From a virus (taxonomy: Duplodnaviria > Caudoviricetes): a DNA stretch of 64,000 nucleotides. A program made the position numbers and the translations under genes. This document shows, in pieces, positions 13,445 to 33,478 of the stretch (the stretch's first letter is position 1; every line of letters begins with the position of its first letter). The notes under the pieces were generated by a model. The model searched no databases and was not told the origin of the DNA. It worked only from the letters and a program-made list of their open reading frames with translations. Location: IMG/VR virus record IMGVR_UViG_3300048598_000287, positions 64,001-128,000 of that record; one strand, written 5' to 3'.

Positions 13445-13765
13445 CTATTTCTCCACTATTTGATAGTTTACATTTTCGCCGAACTCCCACATTGTATGGA
13501 GTAGATCTATATTATGTTCGGAACAGAATTTTTCCGCCGCTTCATGGTTATCGAATGCGATGAATTCAGATTCGCCTCCTTTTCCAATCCAGGCGTATTG
13601 ATAGTATAGATTATTATCCTCTATAAATCTGCACGTTCTATACGAATCGGGTTCACGATATATACCTAAAATGGCGTGATAATCCGTAGTTGTACAGGGG
13701 AATTCTAATCCATTACTCATCTTCTCTATATAGAAGGCCATAGTATCCTCACTCGATACATTCAC
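13445..13765 (-). CDS. Hypothetical protein
   Basis: GTGA overlap with ligase stop. Confidence 0.6.
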   Translation of the reverse strand: MNVSSEDTMAFYIEKMSNGLEFPCTTTDYHAILGIYREPDSYRTCRFIEDNNLYYQYAWIGKGGESEFIAFDNHEAAEKFCSEHNIDLLHTMWEFGENVNYQIVEK

Positions 13766-14916
13766 CTTTTTTGCAGAAGGTATTCATTCGATACTGCCTT
13801 GAACGAATGCATGCCATCTGTGCTTCTGAAAACGATGCCTTCGCGGATCTTTCCGTCAATTACGGACATTCCATCAGCCATCGTAAGAATTGTATGCGCG
13901 TCATCGGGAATATCTATCTCCCCGAATCCTAATGTAGGAACCCAGGGAATACCGTATTCAGCTAGAATTTTCTTTCCTTCTATGCTTCCATATCGCTTTC
14001 CATCCACGATCAGGTTAAATGCTGCGATATCCTGACCCTGAAGAGAATAAGTCCGTTTCTGCACACCCTTCCCGTATATTTCTCCCTGGATCGTCACATA
14101 CGACTTAGCACCGTGCGACTTAGCTATCCTAGAAAGAACCGAGTTAATCTCATACCGTTTAGAGATATCAGTATACTTTCCTGATGCAGATGGATGAATG
14201 ACCCGGTTTCTACTGCATATGTAATACCGGTCACGTTTAAACAGCGAACCTATTTTAAGGGTGAATGTGGAGCTGGTTCCATCGATTTTCTCCGTTGCTA
14301 TCCACTTTCCATGGTAAATGGCCTTAAGCCTGCCTATGTTTATGTTCTGGCAGCGTTCTTCGTCTGTCTTGATAACCCATGCAGGCCAGGAGAATTCAGG
14401 CTTAGCGAGCTTAGTTGCAACACGGACGGCATGCTGTATGATGGCACGGGTTGCCGAGAATTTCATGAAGAATCTAATAATCGGGACGCTCATAAGTTTC
14501 TTGTTTGCCTTTTTCTCAATGGTCTCCGAGTTTTCCTTTTCCGATGCGTCATCCGAATCATAATAGGTAACGCCAAGAAGTGCGGTGCAATCGGCATCGT
14601 CATCCGTCGGAATAGGCACATCGAAAGCCGTGACAGGCAGAGCAAGACCCTGGGAAATGACGCCGAATTTTCCAAGTTTCATCGTCTTGATTTTGTATTT
14701 CCGGGAAGCAAGGAATTCGCTCCATGGCTTTTCAGGAACCTTCGAGTCTATTTCGAAATACACGCACTGGTCTCCTTTCCTGAATTCACCCTTCTTAGCG
14801 ACGAGTGTCCATGAATTAACCATTACCAGCTCAATATTATCCGCCCCATCGATGGGAAGGACATTGGCTATACGTTCCGTATACGCCAGCATTCGGTTCT
14901 GATTTTTATCAAGCAT
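13762..14916 (-). CDS. RNA ligase, DRB0094-like family
   Basis: N-terminal IDGADNIE...YFEIDS..P, ISQGLALP; motif I TEKIDGTS, QGEIYG, REGIVFR, SFKAVSNEYLL. Confidence 0.9.
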   Translation of the reverse strand: MLDKNQNRMLAYTERIANVLPIDGADNIELVMVNSWTLVAKKGEFRKGDQCVYFEIDSKVPEKPWSEFLASRKYKIKTMKLGKFGVISQGLALPVTAFDVPIPTDDDADCTALLGVTYYDSDDASEKENSETIEKKANKKLMSVPIIRFFMKFSATRAIIQHAVRVATKLAKPEFSWPAWVIKTDEERCQNINIGRLKAIYHGKWIATEKIDGTSSTFTLKIGSLFKRDRYYICSRNRVIHPSASGKYTDISKRYEINSVLSRIAKSHGAKSYVTIQGEIYGKGVQKRTYSLQGQDIAAFNLIVDGKRYGSIEGKKILAEYGIPWVPTLGFGEIDIPDDAHTILTMADGMSVIDGKIREGIVFRSTDGMHSFKAVSNEYLLQKR

Positions 14917-14966
14917 GACATTTCTCCTGTGAGGTAAAATATGAAATCATGAATATGATACCATTG

Positions 14967-15215
14967 CTAATTAAGGTACCGTGTTCCCGTATGTTCCGTT
15001 TGCAGCGACCAATTAGTATATGACATGCAAATCGTTCCTAGTATTAGGGTGCAATCGAAACAGGAATCTTTGTTTTTACGTCTGCCGCCATTTTCATGAA
15101 ACGCGATCCGAGGCGTCCATTCTTTATGATCAGCATTTATGCTGATAGATTTTGTACCTTTATCAAACCATAAGCTGAAGGATCGTTTACCTAGTTTCTG
15201 GATATACATAATCAT
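14967..15215 (-). CDS. Hypothetical protein
   Basis: AAGGAG RBS before ATG 15215. Confidence 0.55.
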   Translation of the reverse strand: MIMYIQKLGKRSFSLWFDKGTKSISINADHKEWTPRIAFHENGGRRKNKDSCFDCTLILGTICMSYTNWSLQTEHTGTRYLN

Positions 15216-15223
15216 TTCTCCTT

Positions 15224-15616
15224 TTAATGAATTAGTGACCATACCGCGCATGTTAGAAACGTGCACATTTTTTTGAAGACTGGAAATCCCTTGTCATCAA
15301 TATACAAATCCGATGTTATCTTCCGTCCATAAAGATGTCCGCATTCTCCCCATTTCTCGCCTACGTTGCCGTTAACGGCATTGAACTCAAGCCCGTAGCT
15401 ATGGCAAAAAGAAATAGCATCAGCAAGATAATTGCCATCAGGATACCATTTCCCCCCGTAATTTTCCCGGCAAGTCCATAGGATTATACTATCGCCCATA
15501 TTTTTGCGGTGCTTCAGCCACCATATCAAGAACCGGTTGGGGCACCCGTTATGCGCCATGGGAAAGGAGCATCCCGTAGCAATAGTTCCGTCAAAGTCAA
15601 CAGCTATTGTAGCCAT
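15224..15616 (-). CDS. HAD-superfamily phosphatase (capless)
   Basis: IAVDFDGTI, LWTCR, RKI, LYIDDK. Confidence 0.85.
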   Translation of the reverse strand: MATIAVDFDGTIATGCSFPMAHNGCPNRFLIWWLKHRKNMGDSIILWTCRENYGGKWYPDGNYLADAISFCHSYGLEFNAVNGNVGEKWGECGHLYGRKITSDLYIDDKGFPVFKKMCTFLTCAVWSLIH

Positions 15617-15617
15617 G

Positions 15618-16400
15618 TCATACCTCTATGATGAAATCATTCTGTGACAGATTATTTAGACTATATGGATGCTCTGTACCGTCAAACCCAGAATAATATC
15701 CATACGGATTGCATAAGATGACCGTATCCTTGTACCGAGACACATGAGCATCATGGGTATGACCGCATATCCAGTATTTCACCCCTGACCAGTCGTAGTT
15801 ACCCGGATAGAAATAGAAATACTTGTTAGCGGCACTCCACTTGTATTCCGGATTTGTATTTATCGTGACTGGTGCGAAATGTGTCATCATTATGTCCGGA
15901 TGCTGAGCCAGGACAGCCCTGAGCTTCCCCTGCTCCTTAACCGTTGCACTGCGGAGATTGCCATAGTTCATATTGGCACCGTCGAACCATTCATGTTTCC
16001 ATCGGAACTCTACCAGAGGATCATCAAAATCAGGATCCCACCACCCAGTACATCCCCCGATCCGGAAAGATCCTAATGGTTCCACCGTGCCGTCAAGCAT
16101 ATGAAGGTTCGTGTGGGATGATGAAAAAGTGCGGACCGCATCTATCTTCCTTTCCGTGGTGCCGATCGTCTTAGCGTCCCAATGCACGCACAGGTCGTGG
16201 TTACCAAGACAGAAGAAACATTGCGGGTATGCGTCTGACGCAGCTGACAACGCGGACTGTATTTCATCGATGGAGTTTCCGAAATCTCCTGCCATCAGTA
16301 TGGCGTCAGCCGGATACTTATCGGCGGAAATAATTTCCTCCGGTGTCTTAACTCCTTTCCAGCTATCTATGTGAATGTCAGACAGAACGCGAAGTTTCAT
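15618..16400 (-). CDS. Calcineurin-like metallophosphoesterase
   Basis: SDIH, AGD, GNHD, THFAP, GHTH. Confidence 0.9.
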   Translation of the reverse strand: MKLRVLSDIHIDSWKGVKTPEEIISADKYPADAILMAGDFGNSIDEIQSALSAASDAYPQCFFCLGNHDLCVHWDAKTIGTTERKIDAVRTFSSSHTNLHMLDGTVEPLGSFRIGGCTGWWDPDFDDPLVEFRWKHEWFDGANMNYGNLRSATVKEQGKLRAVLAQHPDIMMTHFAPVTINTNPEYKWSAANKYFYFYPGNYDWSGVKYWICGHTHDAHVSRYKDTVILCNPYGYYSGFDGTEHPYSLNNLSQNDFIIEV

Positions 16401-16441
16401 AGAAATCCCTTGGTATAATGTTCATATTTATATACTATCTC

Positions 16442-16924
16442 TCATATTTGTAGCATTTTATGAACGATATTGCAATCAGCGGCACATACAATATGGACAT
16501 GCTTGGAGTCAAATCCATACTTTGCTTCGGCGAAAAGGCAAAGCCGTCGAAGTACAGCATCAACGTCCATACCAGTTCTATGAATGAGGGCATCACATGC
16601 TAATCCAGATATGGTAAAATGCCTAGAGTCCCCATATTCCTGAATGTCGAACAGCAATTTACCGCTGATGGTACACAGCAACATACGAGACGAGTTATTA
16701 TCTATACTCGATCCAACAGGGTCAATATACTTCTTTTCAACGCAATTATTAAATAGATTCCTTAGCACATAATCAAAATCTTCATATGTAACTGTATCAA
16801 CATCAACGGCGGTTACTCGATTCTTTTCAAGGTCATCATCAGAAAAAGATGCCGACAGCGCATAGGCTTCTGGATGTATGGACTTATACATCAATATCGC
16901 TTCATCTTTGGTAAATTCAATCAT
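16442..16924 (-). CDS. Hypothetical protein
   Basis: AGGAG RBS, 160 aa. Confidence 0.7.
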   Translation of the reverse strand: MIEFTKDEAILMYKSIHPEAYALSASFSDDDLEKNRVTAVDVDTVTYEDFDYVLRNLFNNCVEKKYIDPVGSSIDNNSSRMLLCTISGKLLFDIQEYGDSRHFTISGLACDALIHRTGMDVDAVLRRLCLFAEAKYGFDSKHVHIVCAADCNIVHKMLQI

Positions 16925-16970
16925 ATCTCTCTCCTATAATAATACCCAAATATAATATATTCTTTTGTTG

Positions 16971-17351
16971 TTACGAACCTATTTTTTCATTACATGATTC
17001 ATATTTTTGAATCGCGGCTTCGGCCATCTTAACTGTCAATGTTAAATGCTGCGGATAATCTCCACATACAACTGCCGACGATACATTACCACGATCTTTA
17101 TATATTGTTATAACGATGAATGACGGGCCCGGATCGCATCCGTTATTCCATCCAGATGAATCACTTTCAGATAGCATATCTTCGCTTACATCCACCGGGA
17201 TAAGTTCAATGTGAACATCGTCATTGAAACGTTCCGATTCCAAAGATTCTGCTATAGACCGAAGTTTGTTCATTGTTCCACATGATTCATTATCAGTAGA
17301 AAATTCATCGCCTCGAAAAGCGCATCGGATCTGACCTTCGTATATTCCCAC
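16971..17351 (-). CDS. Hypothetical protein (start uncertain)
   Basis: 126-aa ORF, GTG start. Confidence 0.55.
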   Translation of the reverse strand: MGIYEGQIRCAFRGDEFSTDNESCGTMNKLRSIAESLESERFNDDVHIELIPVDVSEDMLSESDSSGWNNGCDPGPSFIVITIYKDRGNVSSAVVCGDYPQHLTLTVKMAEAAIQKYESCNEKIGS

Positions 17352-17467
17352 ATTGGACGTGGTAGCATTTACCTCATTTTTTTATCTTTGCATGATGCAC
17401 AATCGGCATCATAAATGTGTTGCTCTTTAACAATTATCATAATTATTTCCTTTTTCAAATATGTTAA

Positions 17468-17944
17468 TCATATTGTTCCTATTATATTCATTTCCGAAGG
17501 TCCGATTTGCTCATATATGGTACCTGATATGAAATCATATATGTACGATGGCTTCCCGGAATCAGCCGCCTTGGTAAGATCATCTTTCGTTCCATGGCTT
17601 TTCATGTCCCATAGAGCTATAATGATATCGGAATCTCTGATGATGTATCCATTACGAATGAAACCTGCCCGGCGTCCATATCTCTTCCAATCCGCTGGAT
17701 ACACTAGCTTAGGAATTCCATTGGCGTCGGCATATTCTTCCCCGATACGGTCTGCTCCGGCTGCTCCTCCAGATACCATAAGGCTCATAGATATGCCACG
17801 CTTATGAAGAATCCACGCTATTGCGCAGAATCCCTTTGCACGGTCATCAAACGACCGAGATCCTACGATGCCTATCTTCATGGCTTTACCTGCATCGGGT
17901 AATGCTCTGCCATTTTTTGCTTCTTCAGAGTTCACTTCAACCAT
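17468..17944 (-). CDS. SLOG-family (DUF2493/YspA-like) protein
   Basis: IVGSRSF, VSGGAAGAD, ADW..YGRRAGFIRN, WDMKSHGT. Confidence 0.85.
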   Translation of the reverse strand: MVEVNSEEAKNGRALPDAGKAMKIGIVGSRSFDDRAKGFCAIAWILHKRGISMSLMVSGGAAGADRIGEEYADANGIPKLVYPADWKRYGRRAGFIRNGYIIRDSDIIIALWDMKSHGTKDDLTKAADSGKPSYIYDFISGTIYEQIGPSEMNIIGTI

Positions 17945-17968: not shown

Positions 17969-18313
17969 TCAATATCCTTTACATTTCTTCGGTATATAAG
18001 AACTAATGGATTTGAATGTATATTGAAAATTATGGGCGACGTCATCAGCATAAGCTATGCATGCGGCCACATTTTTTGGCGATCTTTCTTTGAGTATGTT
18101 AGCATTTAATGTATTATATCTAACAAGGGTGGTTTCTAACGTGGCATATCTAACGCAATATGCATCATATATAGAGCAACCAATAAAAAGGAGGATTAGC
18201 ATTATCACACTGTCGATTATGCACGTTCCCTCACATATGCCAAATATTATGAGTAGCAGAACAGCGGATGAACCCAGAATGGTAACGATAAGCAATAATA
18301 TATTAATGGACAT
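17969..18313 (-). CDS. Hypothetical membrane protein (2 TM)
   Basis: AGGAGG RBS; two hydrophobic helices. Confidence 0.65.
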   Translation of the reverse strand: MSINILLLIVTILGSSAVLLLIIFGICEGTCIIDSVIMLILLFIGCSIYDAYCVRYATLETTLVRYNTLNANILKERSPKNVAACIAYADDVAHNFQYTFKSISSYIPKKCKGY

Positions 18314-18635
18314 ATGCTGCCTCCTTTTTATGCAACTGATTTATTTTCTTTTTCTCTAATTTTTGCAGTTTCTCATACTTTCTCAACTGCACTACACTCT
18401 CAGAGAAATCTCGGAACAGCTCGGCATTTTTGATGAGATTTGTATACGTGACTTTAGGCAATTTGGCCTTACTCTCAATAAGTACCTTCGACAAATGAGT
18501 TATGCAAGAGCTTCTTATATCGATGATGCGCTGCGATTTACTAATAGAATCCCGCAGATTCTCCAATATAGAAGGGGGTTTCTTTAACGATGATACGCAA
18601 ATCTTTCTTGCTTCTTCAATCGTCAATTCAGCCAT
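18303..18635 (-). CDS. Hypothetical protein, MAELTIEEARK-leader family
   Basis: AAGGAGGCC RBS and N-terminus shared with the 19279 and 21181 genes. Confidence 0.7.
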   Translation of the reverse strand: MAELTIEEARKICVSSLKKPPSILENLRDSISKSQRIIDIRSSCITHLSKVLIESKAKLPKVTYTNLIKNAELFRDFSESVVQLRKYEKLQKLEKKKINQLHKKEAAYVH

Positions 18636-18689
18636 GTCTGGCCTCCTTATATTATTTAATAATTCAATCATATTATTCATACCGTTATA

Positions 18690-18914
18690 GCGGTAACATC
18701 ATCCAATCCTAACGTGGTGTTCACCGAGCAGTCGACCAGCTCCACGCTGCAACATCATCCACTCCGAATCTAATCGTTGCCCCAGTTTAGAATAGTACTA
18801 CGACATCCGTTTGGTGTAACATCATTCAATCCGAACTGGATATTCATCATCGGGAAATCCGGCTTAAGTCCGGAGTTTGGTGTAACATCATTCAATCCGA
18901 ACTGGATATTCATC
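18690..18914 (-). repeat. CRISPR-like array of four 36-bp repeats with 30/31/20-bp spacers, starting inside the upstream ORF; no cas genes in window
   Basis: GATGAATATCCAGTTCGGATTGAATGATGTTACACC at 18879-18914 and 18813-18848 (identical); degenerate copies at 18746-18781 (23/36) and 18690-18725 (27/36). Confidence 0.75.
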
Positions 18915-19279
18915 TGATTTTTCATAAGTCGTTTAATATCCTCATCTTCCAATGAATCCGTATCCTTGAAAATCTTCCATACACGGTAATAACTTACCCA
19001 GAAACGCTTATTTTTTCCGGTGAACTGAAGGTCAAACAGCCATTCATTATTTGAATTTCGAAGTTCGATTCTGTTAGTGGGAAGCCGGCTTTCATTCCCC
19101 TTTTCATCAAGGAACCTCTTCTTGGTGCATTGCCCAAGTAGTTCCAGGAACGTCTTGTCGAATTCTTCCTGAGTAACACCTTCTAGTTCACTTTTAGAGA
19201 ACTTGGTAAGCATCAAAGCTTTAAGGGCATCCGATTTTTTATAGATCGTTCTTGCTTCTTCAACAGTCAGCTCTGCCAT
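18770..19279 (-). CDS. Hypothetical protein, MAELT-leader family, whose C-terminus reads into the repeat array
   Basis: AAGGAGGCC RBS; ends MNIQFGLNDVTP x2. Confidence 0.75.
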   Translation of the reverse strand: MAELTVEEARTIYKKSDALKALMLTKFSKSELEGVTQEEFDKTFLELLGQCTKKRFLDEKGNESRLPTNRIELRNSNNEWLFDLQFTGKNKRFWVSYYRVWKIFKDTDSLEDEDIKRLMKNQMNIQFGLNDVTPNSGLKPDFPMMNIQFGLNDVTPNGCRSTILNWGND

Positions 19280-19307
19280 GTTAGGCCTCCTTAATGATAC
19301 ACTGATA

Positions 19308-19336
19308 AATATACAAATTTCATTGGCTATTGGCAA
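19308..19336 (-). promoter_or_regulatory. Sigma70-type early promoter
   Basis: TTGCCA-N17-TATATT. Confidence 0.7.
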
Positions 19337-20377: not shown

Positions 20378-21181
20378 TTAATACCACCATTCATGTCCAT
20401 CTGACCTTTTATTATGAATAATGTTCCCATTGGCATCGTACCAATATTCATATCCATCGGAATCCTTCTCATGGATCAGTTTTCCATTGGCATCGTACTT
20501 ACATTCTCGGCCAAAGGCATCTTTCGTACTACGAAGTGTGCCCTTATCGTCGTACCACGATTCGTATCCGTCGGAAGACTTCTCATGGATCTTATTCCCA
20601 TTGGTATCGTACCAATATTCGGCCCCGTTAGAATATTTTTTGCGAATCACTTTTCCATTGACATCATACCAGCATATTGTTCCAGTGGAAGCATTCTTAT
20701 GACTCATGCCTCCATTGGCATCGTACCAATCTTCATATCCATCGGAATCCTTCTCATGGATCAGTTTCCTATTGGTATCAAAGTCATGCCATTTTTCGTA
20801 TCCACTAGCTGCCTTTTCATGAATCATGTTACCTTTGCCATCATACCATTCTTCACGTCCATCGGGATGTTTGCAGTGAAGCCATCTTCCCGTAGGCGTA
20901 TACCACGATTCGTATCCGTCAGAAAATTTCACATGATTTGTGTTACCATCGGCATCTGGCCAGAATTCGTATCCATTGGACAATTTCCTATGCATAAGAT
21001 GTGCAGTCCCAGTGTCATCATATTCATACCACGATTCTGATCCGTCAGAAAATTTCATATGAGTCAGATTTCCATTGACACCGTCAAGTGCTTCCTTAGT
21101 GAACTTAGTGAGCATCAGGGATTTCATCTCATCCGATTTTTTATAGATCTTTCTTGCTTCTTCAATAGTCAACTCTGCCAT
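20378..21181 (-). CDS. YD-like beta-repeat protein with MAELT leader
   Basis: About 12 tandem WYDxNGNxIHxKxSDG units of roughly 19-21 aa. Confidence 0.8.
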   Translation of the reverse strand: MAELTIEEARKIYKKSDEMKSLMLTKFTKEALDGVNGNLTHMKFSDGSESWYEYDDTGTAHLMHRKLSNGYEFWPDADGNTNHVKFSDGYESWYTPTGRWLHCKHPDGREEWYDGKGNMIHEKAASGYEKWHDFDTNRKLIHEKDSDGYEDWYDANGGMSHKNASTGTICWYDVNGKVIRKKYSNGAEYWYDTNGNKIHEKSSDGYESWYDDKGTLRSTKDAFGRECKYDANGKLIHEKDSDGYEYWYDANGNIIHNKRSDGHEWWY

Positions 21182-21198
21182 GTCAGGCCTCCATTAAT

Positions 21199-32041: not shown

Positions 32042-33478
32042 TCGAAATGCAATAAAATGCATATTGAGTTTTCAGGAATCCGGGACTCTAAGCACCGAAC
32101 CATCCAGGCTGAACAATCCCTCTGACTTCCAGAAGAAGCCTTCGGTTTTGCTCAGTGAGGACAACATATCGCACCGGGGTAGATCGGGCAGAAGTTGCTC
32201 ATGGTTCTTCGCCGCGTTAATGTCGGCGTCGATAGCCAGCCCGCAATGCGGACAGATGAACAGTTTACCCTTCCTAGATGCTTTACGTACCAGGCCGCAA
32301 TCCGAACACCGTTGAGAACGATAAGCCGACGACTGCTGATTCACCTGGACCCCAAGCTCTTCAGTAATTCTTATCAGGCTATCTCTGATGACCGGATTTG
32401 ACCAGTGAGACAATTTCCTACTGGTATTTCTACCATATCTTACATTCACTACATTTTCCAGCGCGATTTCCTTAACGCCGCGTAAATCCAAACGATTCAG
32501 CGCATAATTCACATAGTTCTTCCGTTCAATCACAGCGCGGGCGAATGCGTGTGATCCACGTTCCTTCCTTGCCATCTTAGCGGCTATGGTATCCAGGTTG
32601 ACGGAGATGATCCGTTCTGGCTGGTTTTTCTTAGGAGCCTTTATGACCAGGTCCGGAGTGACTGATCCGTTGGACAGTGACATGGTCGTCTTCAGCCCTT
32701 GATCGGCGCCGATGCGCGTGCCTTCCGTTCGCTGGGGGACTTCCTTCTGCCATCTAAGCTGGACGCCGTGCTCGTCGATTAAATATCCGGAGCAGCGTTC
32801 CCATGACCCGTCCGTGTATTTCTTCAGCATGGAATGCCTGCAGACGGGAATCCTGACGTGTTCTCGTCCAGTAGATTTGATCCTGACGTATCCGTAGAAC
32901 TTTCCATCGGGTGTTTCGGCGAAATCCGCGCATTTAGAGCTGATCTCTATTCCCGCGTCACTTAAGTCAGGCTTCTTCGGCATCGATTCTTCTATCTTTG
33001 TCCAGAGCCGTTCGCTGTATTCGCCCTGTCCACATAGCCTGTCAAATACATATATCCGCGCCGACTGCTTGCCTAGCATTGATCTGAGCTTGCCGCTTAG
33101 CTGCGTAACCAGTGAACTGAGCATACGTCCGCTTAACCACGTGTCTACGTTGAACCGGTTGTAGTCCAGGTATTTAGGTAATGAGAGCTTGAATTTGCTT
33201 ACATTGAACTCATGCGTGCTCCCGTTTTCCATCCAGCGGTATCCGTTAATCCACAAGTCGTCGCAGATCAGCTGCATCACCCTGCGCCATTCAGACAGCA
33301 GGATGAGAGTCTCATCCTGCTTTCTTGCATTAGCGAACTTGAGTGTATGTTGTGTCGATCGGACAATCATATTAATAGTTTATATCCTGCCTATGTAAAT
33401 TATATCTTTATTAACTTACATTCTTATATATATATATTCCATTGATTTACTATATTTTCTGTATCATGTTATTAGACA
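32039..33478 (-). mobile_element. TnpB-only IS200/IS605-family (IS1341-like) element, ~1440 bp (ends uncertain by a few bp)
   Basis: Removal restores a continuous GT frame (…IHKS|LTTVLS…); different base composition; small subterminal hairpins. Confidence 0.75.
32072..33370 (-). CDS. tnpB: TnpB RNA-guided endonuclease
   Basis: RuvC I GADQG, RuvC II ALEN, zinc finger CSDC...CPHC, RuvC III DADINAAKN. Confidence 0.9.
   Translation of the reverse strand: MIVRSTQHTLKFANARKQDETLILLSEWRRVMQLICDDLWINGYRWMENGSTHEFNVSKFKLSLPKYLDYNRFNVDTWLSGRMLSSLVTQLSGKLRSMLGKQSARIYVFDRLCGQGEYSERLWTKIEESMPKKPDLSDAGIEISSKCADFAETPDGKFYGYVRIKSTGREHVRIPVCRHSMLKKYTDGSWERCSGYLIDEHGVQLRWQKEVPQRTEGTRIGADQGLKTTMSLSNGSVTPDLVIKAPKKNQPERIISVNLDTIAAKMARKERGSHAFARAVIERKNYVNYALNRLDLRGVKEIALENVVNVRYGRNTSRKLSHWSNPVIRDSLIRITEELGVQVNQQSSAYRSQRCSDCGLVRKASRKGKLFICPHCGLAIDADINAAKNHEQLLPDLPRCDMLSSLSKTEGFFWKSEGLFSLDGSVLRVPDS

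Follow-up and report, generated by a model that had tools for sequence, protein, structure and literature searches.

A phage gene family whose last codons form the first repeat of a probable CRISPR-type mini-array

In the genome of a wastewater phage, a small gene and a short array of repeats and spacers use the same DNA, in that the last 36 bases of the gene are also the first repeat of the array. The locus lies in a stretch of 64,000 nucleotides (the window) that corresponds to bases 64001–128000 of the 277,197-bp virus record IMGVR_UViG_3300048598_000287, which is 66% complete according to CheckV; coordinates prefixed C1 refer to this 277-kb record (G000). We consider it probable that the locus is a gene-anchored mini-array of the CRISPR type, and that it is a single copy of a phage cassette whose small gene and array have DNA in common. 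Such arrays hold, between exact duplicates of 36 bp, 29–32-nt pieces of genomes of the same phage group, taken from either strand and without flanking homology. The CRISPR-like reading of the architecture, which a first-pass annotation had offered from the letters of the window, has thus been borne out, as the spacers are captured phage DNA that turns over between near-identical sister phages.

The gene and its array

All elements of the locus lie on the minus strand and are listed here in the order in which that strand is read (R, repeat; S, spacer; ORF, open reading frame; RBS, ribosome-binding site).

19308–19336, minus: promoter-like hexamer pair, agreeing with the consensus at 10 of 12 positions, hexamers 17 nt apart; a consensus match only
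19266–19291, minus: RBS and start block of the 'MAELT' leader, conserved and common to other genes
18770–19279, minus: family ORF of 169 aa; residues 1–134 are the conserved protein, residues 135–169 are translated S1, R2 and S2
18879–18914, minus: R1, encoding residues 123–134, i.e. the domain end, a box ending in Val-Thr-Pro
18849–18878, minus: S1, 30 nt, swapped for an unrelated 30-nt spacer in sister phages
18813–18848, minus: R2, identical to R1
18782–18812, minus: S2, 31 nt, the same in sister phages
18746–18781, minus: R3, degenerate (23/36 to R1), in the +1 frame, with the TAG stop of the ORF at its start
18726–18745, minus: S3, 20 nt, short, old or partly deleted
18690–18725, minus: R4, degenerate (27/36 to R1)
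18662–18680, minus: fifth repeat, truncated and degenerate, running directly into the conserved block upstream of the next gene
18303–18635, minus: next gene, 110 aa, with leader and start block as in the family gene and an unrelated body

The repeat coordinates, the repeat identities (two copies identical, two degenerate) and the spacer lengths of 30, 31 and 20 nt had all been given correctly in the first-pass annotation. Identity between R1 and R2 covers the 36 nt and 4 nt beyond, the three spacers are mutually unrelated, and the window contains four copies of the 23-nt conserved repeat core, where shuffled sequence would give 0.04. The far end of the array, i.e. a truncated repeat joined to a conserved upstream block, recurs at other arrays of this genome.

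Because 66 bp equal 22 codons, the ORF reads R1, S1 and R2 in frame; it remains open through most of S2 and ends at the TAG with which R3 begins. The spacings of 67 and 56 bp further downstream had been taken to break the frame; R3 is in the +1 frame, and R4 has returned to frame 0 after a TAG and a TGA. That the downstream repeats still 'encode' the peptide follows from duplication of a coding repeat; at the paralogs many of the units further down have left the frame or are cut off from it by TGA or TAG, and stop codons within spacers, which are often present, occur at about the chance rate. An alternative genetic code was considered and rejected, as each of TAA, TAG and TGA is found to break up paralogs or arrays.

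A layout conserved across the family

The window locus is the outlying tenth copy of the cassette in this genome, which has about ten paralogs, nine of them clustered at C1:46.9–56.6 kb, i.e. 26–36 kb upstream of the copy in the window. All ten loci end in the 12-codon box; nine have two to four box copies, spaced 56–107 bp and mostly 66–68 bp apart, and one has a single copy. Beyond this genome, the cassette recurs in more than 200 close metagenomic homologs and in relatives with less than 30% identity, always to the same plan, in which the last 12 codons of a domain of about 100 aa are the first repeat of a mini-array with a period of 65–66 nt. Repeats across these arrays measure 36 nt and spacers mostly 29–32 nt.

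In 118 of 120 close metagenomic homologs, the Val-Thr-Pro of the box closes the conserved domain, and a hypervariable tail of 1–27 residues follows, and the first repeat is thus the natural coding end of the gene, as had been proposed. A second in-frame box is present in 22 of the 120, with an inter-box stretch of always exactly 10 residues and hence a period of exactly 22 aa. A HMMER search added 134 clusters of more distant relatives, in which the sequence of the box is different and the ending and the 22-residue period are kept. At the DNA level, L032, a 221-kb contig of a distant lineage, combines three unrelated 30-nt spacers with three identical repeats of 36 nt and a fourth that is degenerate; in L055, an IMG/VR contig of a distant lineage, each of three repeats is in a different reading frame and the spacers measure 29 nt; and L071, a short contig binned into a Bacteroidia genome, follows the same pattern. 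Across family members below 30% identity, the repeat sequence co-varies with the C-terminus of the protein, and the last five bases of the repeat are identical in every lineage (alignments A5 and A7). The first-pass annotation had named the homologs as the place to check the arrangement, and close as well as distant family members indeed carry a repeat in their C-terminal codons together with variable spacers. The family occurs in phages of differing sizes and habitats; GenBank phages contained no DNA or protein relative. Because it is so deeply conserved, the fusion of gene and array appears to be maintained rather than accidental.

Origin and turnover of the spacers

Sources could be placed for several spacers of the family, beginning with this genome itself. 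One 31-nt spacer corresponds to C1:18156–18186 at 30/31 and a 30-nt spacer to C1:228365–228394 at 29/30, i.e. with one mismatch each; in both cases identity stops exactly at the spacer borders, with 0–1 nt of flank shared, and by our own estimate a match of this kind would arise by chance in 277 kb with a probability of about 1e-10. The spacer 1 that sister phages have at the window locus equals C1:191148–191177 at 29/30, inside an open frame of 1817 codons, and related contigs have YD/MORN-repeat genes to which yet another spacer corresponds at 29/30. At the peptide level, this one genome accounts for about 8 of 69 distinct homolog tails, and translated tails match at four further sites of this genome as well as YD/MORN-repeat genes. 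Such sequence comparisons show that the spacers are copies of DNA from this phage group. For S1–S3 of the window itself, no source was found in the phage's own genome or in GenBank phages, exact scans of IMG/VR gave no match to the cores of S1 and S2, and the spacers of L055 have no source within its 41-kb record.

Two observations on sources stand beside these. YD/MORN-type repeat proteins form a large multigene family in this phage (window 20378–21181, minus; C1:8–28 kb) with coding repeats of 57–63 bp, which are a frequent source of array spacers. A 30-nt spacer at L028:9923–9952 resembles, in sense orientation, the 5' part of a tRNA gene (the D-arm region), and no source for it was found in this genome.

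Each spacer had also been said to hold a palindrome or hairpin. As a special feature this does not survive comparison with random 30-mers of the genome, since 21 spacers of 28–32 nt fold only slightly better (–3.5 versus –2.8 kcal/mol) and are richer in G+C (0.46 versus 0.41). A diversity-generating retroelement was rejected as the origin of the variable segments, because the spacers are mutually unrelated and are not adenine-mutated copies.

Turnover is most clearly seen in eight independent wastewater contigs of sister phages, which are about 99.5% identical over 386 alignment columns except in spacer 1 (alignment A1). Here spacer 1 has been cleanly swapped for an unrelated 30-nt sequence, and the distal units are shared and decayed. 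Many pairs of homologs have a common distal tail with one proximal unit present or absent, and one repeat type provides a nested series of one, two and three units. These patterns fit growth of the arrays at the gene side together with loss by recombination between repeats.

The family protein and its leader

Residues 1 to about 35 of the protein are a portable leader, which together with its RBS is common to unrelated nearby genes, and residues from about 35 to 134 are the family domain of some 100 aa. An AlphaFold model from a deep alignment (A3) reached a pLDDT (predicted local distance difference test) of 93.6 and a pTM (predicted template modelling score) of 0.84, whereas an earlier model from a shallow alignment was unusable (pLDDT 47). 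The predicted domain consists of a helix, a four-stranded sheet and two helices, with the box as the end of the last helix plus the terminal residues. A fold search with the confident model gave no significant PDB match, a wide search reached a best Z of 4.5, and the look-alikes of the model in BFVD and the ESM Atlas are uncharacterised phage proteins only. One of the two options of the first-pass annotation was that the small protein may bind processed repeat-spacer RNAs; no RNA-binding or Cas fold was recognisable in these fold searches. Neither Pfam nor PHROGs nor PADLOC provided a family for the protein, its close or distant members or longer fused forms. In a small sample, the last ~40 codons are more uniform at synonymous sites than the other codons of the gene (0.94 in the box versus 0.78 elsewhere), a faint indication that the nucleic acid is under constraint or that gene conversion has been at work.

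The MAELT leader of about 30–40 aa with its RBS heads genes that are otherwise unrelated, i.e. this family, the 110-aa protein and YD/MORN-repeat proteins, with more copies genome-wide, and may be a portable addressing or expression module. Its RBS and start block has three copies in the window (18622–18647, 19266–19291 and 21168–21193, all on the minus strand) and none in shuffled sequence.

Expression signals, neighbouring genes and cas loci

A sigma70 promoter had been assigned to the family gene. The match of 10 out of 12 consensus positions at 19336–19308 is indeed there; promoter-like sites of this kind are, however, no commoner in the window than in shuffles of it. No terminator-like site was found on the gene's strand between the family gene or its array and the next gene, and for this reason the array is probably transcribed together with the gene; the next gene is probably co-transcribed as well. 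Contigs from RNA libraries cover the gene and R1/R2; these are assembled contigs only, which break at the 40-nt identical repeats, and paralogs cross-map.

The phage has a type I CRISPR locus of its own (L053, C1:30–5683), about 75 kb upstream of the window locus, with Cas3 (E = 5e-42), a weak Cas7 match, two unnamed genes and an array of nine palindromic repeats with a 61-bp period and seven 33-nt spacers. Its repeat is unrelated to the 36-nt repeat. None of its seven spacers matched this genome or related contigs, and thus the two kinds of array sample different sources. An Rfam search of the region of the window locus returned noise only.

The exact repeat core had 20 scattered single matches in 185,579 species genomes, which is about the chance number, and none in tandem; two repeat profiles run against 151 Bacteroidia genomes gave as their sole tandem match another copy of the phage gene family. 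The strong Shine-Dalgarno sites of this phage do not suggest a Bacteroidota host.

TnpB-like genes lie at 32072–33370 of the window (minus) and at C1:45525–46721 (minus), the latter directly behind an array of the upstream cluster, and at L026:8001–10372 an IS607-like pair (serine recombinase plus TnpB) sits right behind a family gene and extends its tail. TnpB was rejected as an effector of the arrays; most of them have no TnpB nearby, and these genes are read as insertion-sequence insertions. Elsewhere in the window, positions 13762–17944 (minus) encode an RNA ligase, a metallophosphoesterase and a YAcAr/SLOG-domain protein in a neighbourhood that is kept in sister contigs and that could be an RNA repair or nucleotide-signalling module.

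How the arrays may arise and what weighs against it

An integrase-type insertion with a molecular ruler is what we propose for the origin of the units, because the architecture, the captured spacers with their sharp borders, the control of length and the exact 36-bp duplication all point to it. Each unit would be inserted at the repeat nearest the gene, where cuts staggered by 36 bp would be followed by fill-in repair, as with Cas1–Cas2, and recombination between repeats would remove units and so keep the arrays short. The inserting enzyme may come from a host adaptation module of the 36/30 type acting in trans or may be a function of the phage, and the first spacer would be translated as an arbitrary tail. 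The likeliest use of such arrays, which we put forward tentatively, would be as a source of guides, similar to CRISPR RNA (crRNA), against related phages.

A number of observations speak against this picture. Neither cas1 (PF01867) nor cas2 (PF09827) was found in the 277-kb record, itself 66% complete; the earlier statement that the window has no cas gene thus holds for these two genes, sought in the whole record, with the Cas3 locus lying outside the window. The 36-nt repeat has no conserved or stable hairpin, and no bacterial array with a related repeat turned up in the genomes scanned, so that no enzyme or host machinery can be named. Among eight placed protospacers, a small sample, orientation relative to the source genes is mixed (five antisense, three sense), which lends no support to an RNA-targeting role, and six protospacers yielded no common flanking motif. 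Several spacers have lengths of 20–22, 47 or 71 nt. The related arrays L026 and L030 share their first spacer and differ distally, so that deletions or an internal insertion are needed to account for them, and deletions could mimic polar growth. Finally, three distant relatives (P0167, P0217 and P0170) are single ORFs of 346–760 aa that stay open through three to five tandem gene-plus-array units, which could be either chance or the mark of a lineage that makes these units as one polyprotein. As to the longest spacer, the 71 nt at C1:50417–50496 are a 40-nt tandem duplication, made up of a 31-nt spacer and the 9 nt with which the repeat opens, which shows that slippage-type rearrangement takes place inside arrays.

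Alternative explanations

Of the alternatives, the one we take most seriously, even if it is unlikely, is that the arrays are a by-product without function, with the 3' end of the gene serving as an ectopic target for a Cas1–Cas2 of the 36/30 type, from host or phage, which inserts phage prespacers that are later lost. Off-target CRISPR integration is known from E. coli ('neo-CRISPR'). Spacers drawn for the most part from the phage's own group, whichever the strand and with no motif, arrays that are very short and decay distally, and the lack of a linked effector or adaptation gene would all be expected on such a view. What makes it hard to speak of an accident is that the gene-array fusion and the 36+30 geometry persist below 30% identity, with a repeat that co-varies with the C-terminus; the greater synonymous uniformity of the box (0.94, against 0.78 elsewhere, in a small sample) also argues against it.

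Also unlikely, and placed by us behind the by-product, is a self-contained capture system of the phage that is independent of Cas1/Cas2, in which the family protein would recognise the 3' end of its own gene, as DNA or RNA, and either direct the 30-nt insertions or employ the repeat-spacer RNA that results as guides.

More doubtful again is a system for diversifying the protein, in which insertions would rewrite the C-terminal tail or supply further copies of the 12-residue box, to act as a linear motif. Translation always covers the first spacer, close relatives have different tails, and the three distant ORFs just mentioned hold their three to five gene-array units open in one frame. Yet the spacers are arbitrary pieces from either strand of unrelated genes, stops occur at about the chance rate and leave tails of anything from 1 to 27 residues, and with many units out of frame most of the array is unreadable as protein.

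A store of silent C-terminal cassettes, swapped by homologous recombination at the repeat like the orphan modules of polymorphic toxins, is highly improbable. It is true that direct repeats flank the units, that recombination would bring the next unit to the gene and that some units are common to paralogous arrays; the units, however, are 30-nt copies of unrelated sites, antisense as often as sense, with stops and frame-breaking lengths, and they are not conserved as peptides between relatives. The first-pass annotation had named alternative C-termini as one of its two options, and this option fails on the same facts, as spacers derive from either strand and any frame of unrelated genes and bring stops and frame-breaking lengths with them.

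An ordinary protein tandem repeat of 22 residues decaying by frameshifts, or an artefact of assembly, is hardly credible, because in spite of the in-frame R1–S1–R2 with its 22-codon period the spacers are mutually unrelated and derive from other places in the genome, the units differ in frame or have stops between them, and independent assemblies of many wastewater samples contain the same sequence.

Comparison with known systems

With CRISPR arrays in general, the gene-anchored mini-arrays have in common the direct repeats of constant length, the unique spacers of nearly constant length and the protospacers that could be found; they differ in that a conserved coding sequence, and not a non-coding leader with a promoter, lies upstream of the first repeat. 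Closer in kind are the mini-arrays of one or two spacers, without adjacent cas genes, of the Sulfolobales viruses SPV1 and SPV2, which are intergenic, have a host-like, promoter-bearing leader and repeats like host CRISPR repeats, and have spacers matching related viruses, with point changes in the carrier's own copy (Medvedeva et al. 2019, PMC6858448). Both here and there, short viral arrays have no cas genes next to them, and close relatives have different spacers at a given position; the imperfect matches of the present phage to its own genome (30/31 and 29/30) may be of the same kind as the point changes in those viruses. In contrast to SPV1 and SPV2, however, the 'leader' in our phage is a coding gene whose conserved domain end is encoded by the first repeat, ten loci are present in one genome, and no matching host repeat was found in the genomes scanned.

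Arrays of type VI-B (Cas13b) that have no cas1/cas2 gain spacers in trans through the Cas1–Cas2 of a type II-C system, and in F. columnare the VI-B geometry is a 36-bp repeat with a 30-bp spacer (Hoikkala et al. 2021, PMC8092290). The phage arrays have the same 36/30 geometry and likewise turn over without adaptation genes of their own, a likeness that rests on geometry and not on repeat sequence; the eight placed protospacers, a small sample, show no bias towards transcripts, no cas13b or type II-C locus is known for this phage or its host, and VI-B arrays are not part of a coding gene. By analogy, type VI-B gives a precedent for the filling of arrays in trans.

Like other huge phages with CRISPR–Cas loci that lack Cas1/2, the present one has arrays and, in its 277-kb record, no adaptation module, and it has its own type I locus at C1:30–5683. 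Compact or orphan CRISPR arrays and Cas1/2-less CRISPR–Cas loci were reportedly described in huge phages by Al-Shayeb et al. in 2020. From the canonical arrays of such phages, those studied here are set apart by a non-palindromic 36-nt repeat, by fusion to a multicopy protein family and by spacers from the phage's own group. The orphan units of polymorphic toxin loci of the CDI (contact-dependent inhibition) and Rhs types consist of entire toxin domains together with immunity genes, and homologous recombination exchanges them; in these as in the phage loci a conserved box ends the constant part and box-plus-variable units follow downstream, whereas the phage units are 30-nt copies of arbitrary DNA. 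The literature that we searched contains virus-borne mini-arrays and filling in trans, and no description of gene-embedded CRISPR arrays.

Conclusions

CRISPR arrays are usually seen as non-coding and served by cas genes, and here a phage gene family has the first repeat of its arrays in its own coding end. The work also defines a protein family that had not been annotated, with a confident structural model and no known fold. If a host integrase fills the arrays, this would be a new way in which phages exploit the adaptation machinery of their host, probably for conflicts between related phages; if a function of the phage does so, it would be a new mechanism of sequence capture. Either way, the family offers a testable handle on how viral arrays without Cas1/2 gain spacers. 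Should the capture system turn out to be independent of Cas1/Cas2, it would represent a new adaptive, guide-storing class distinct from CRISPR–Cas.

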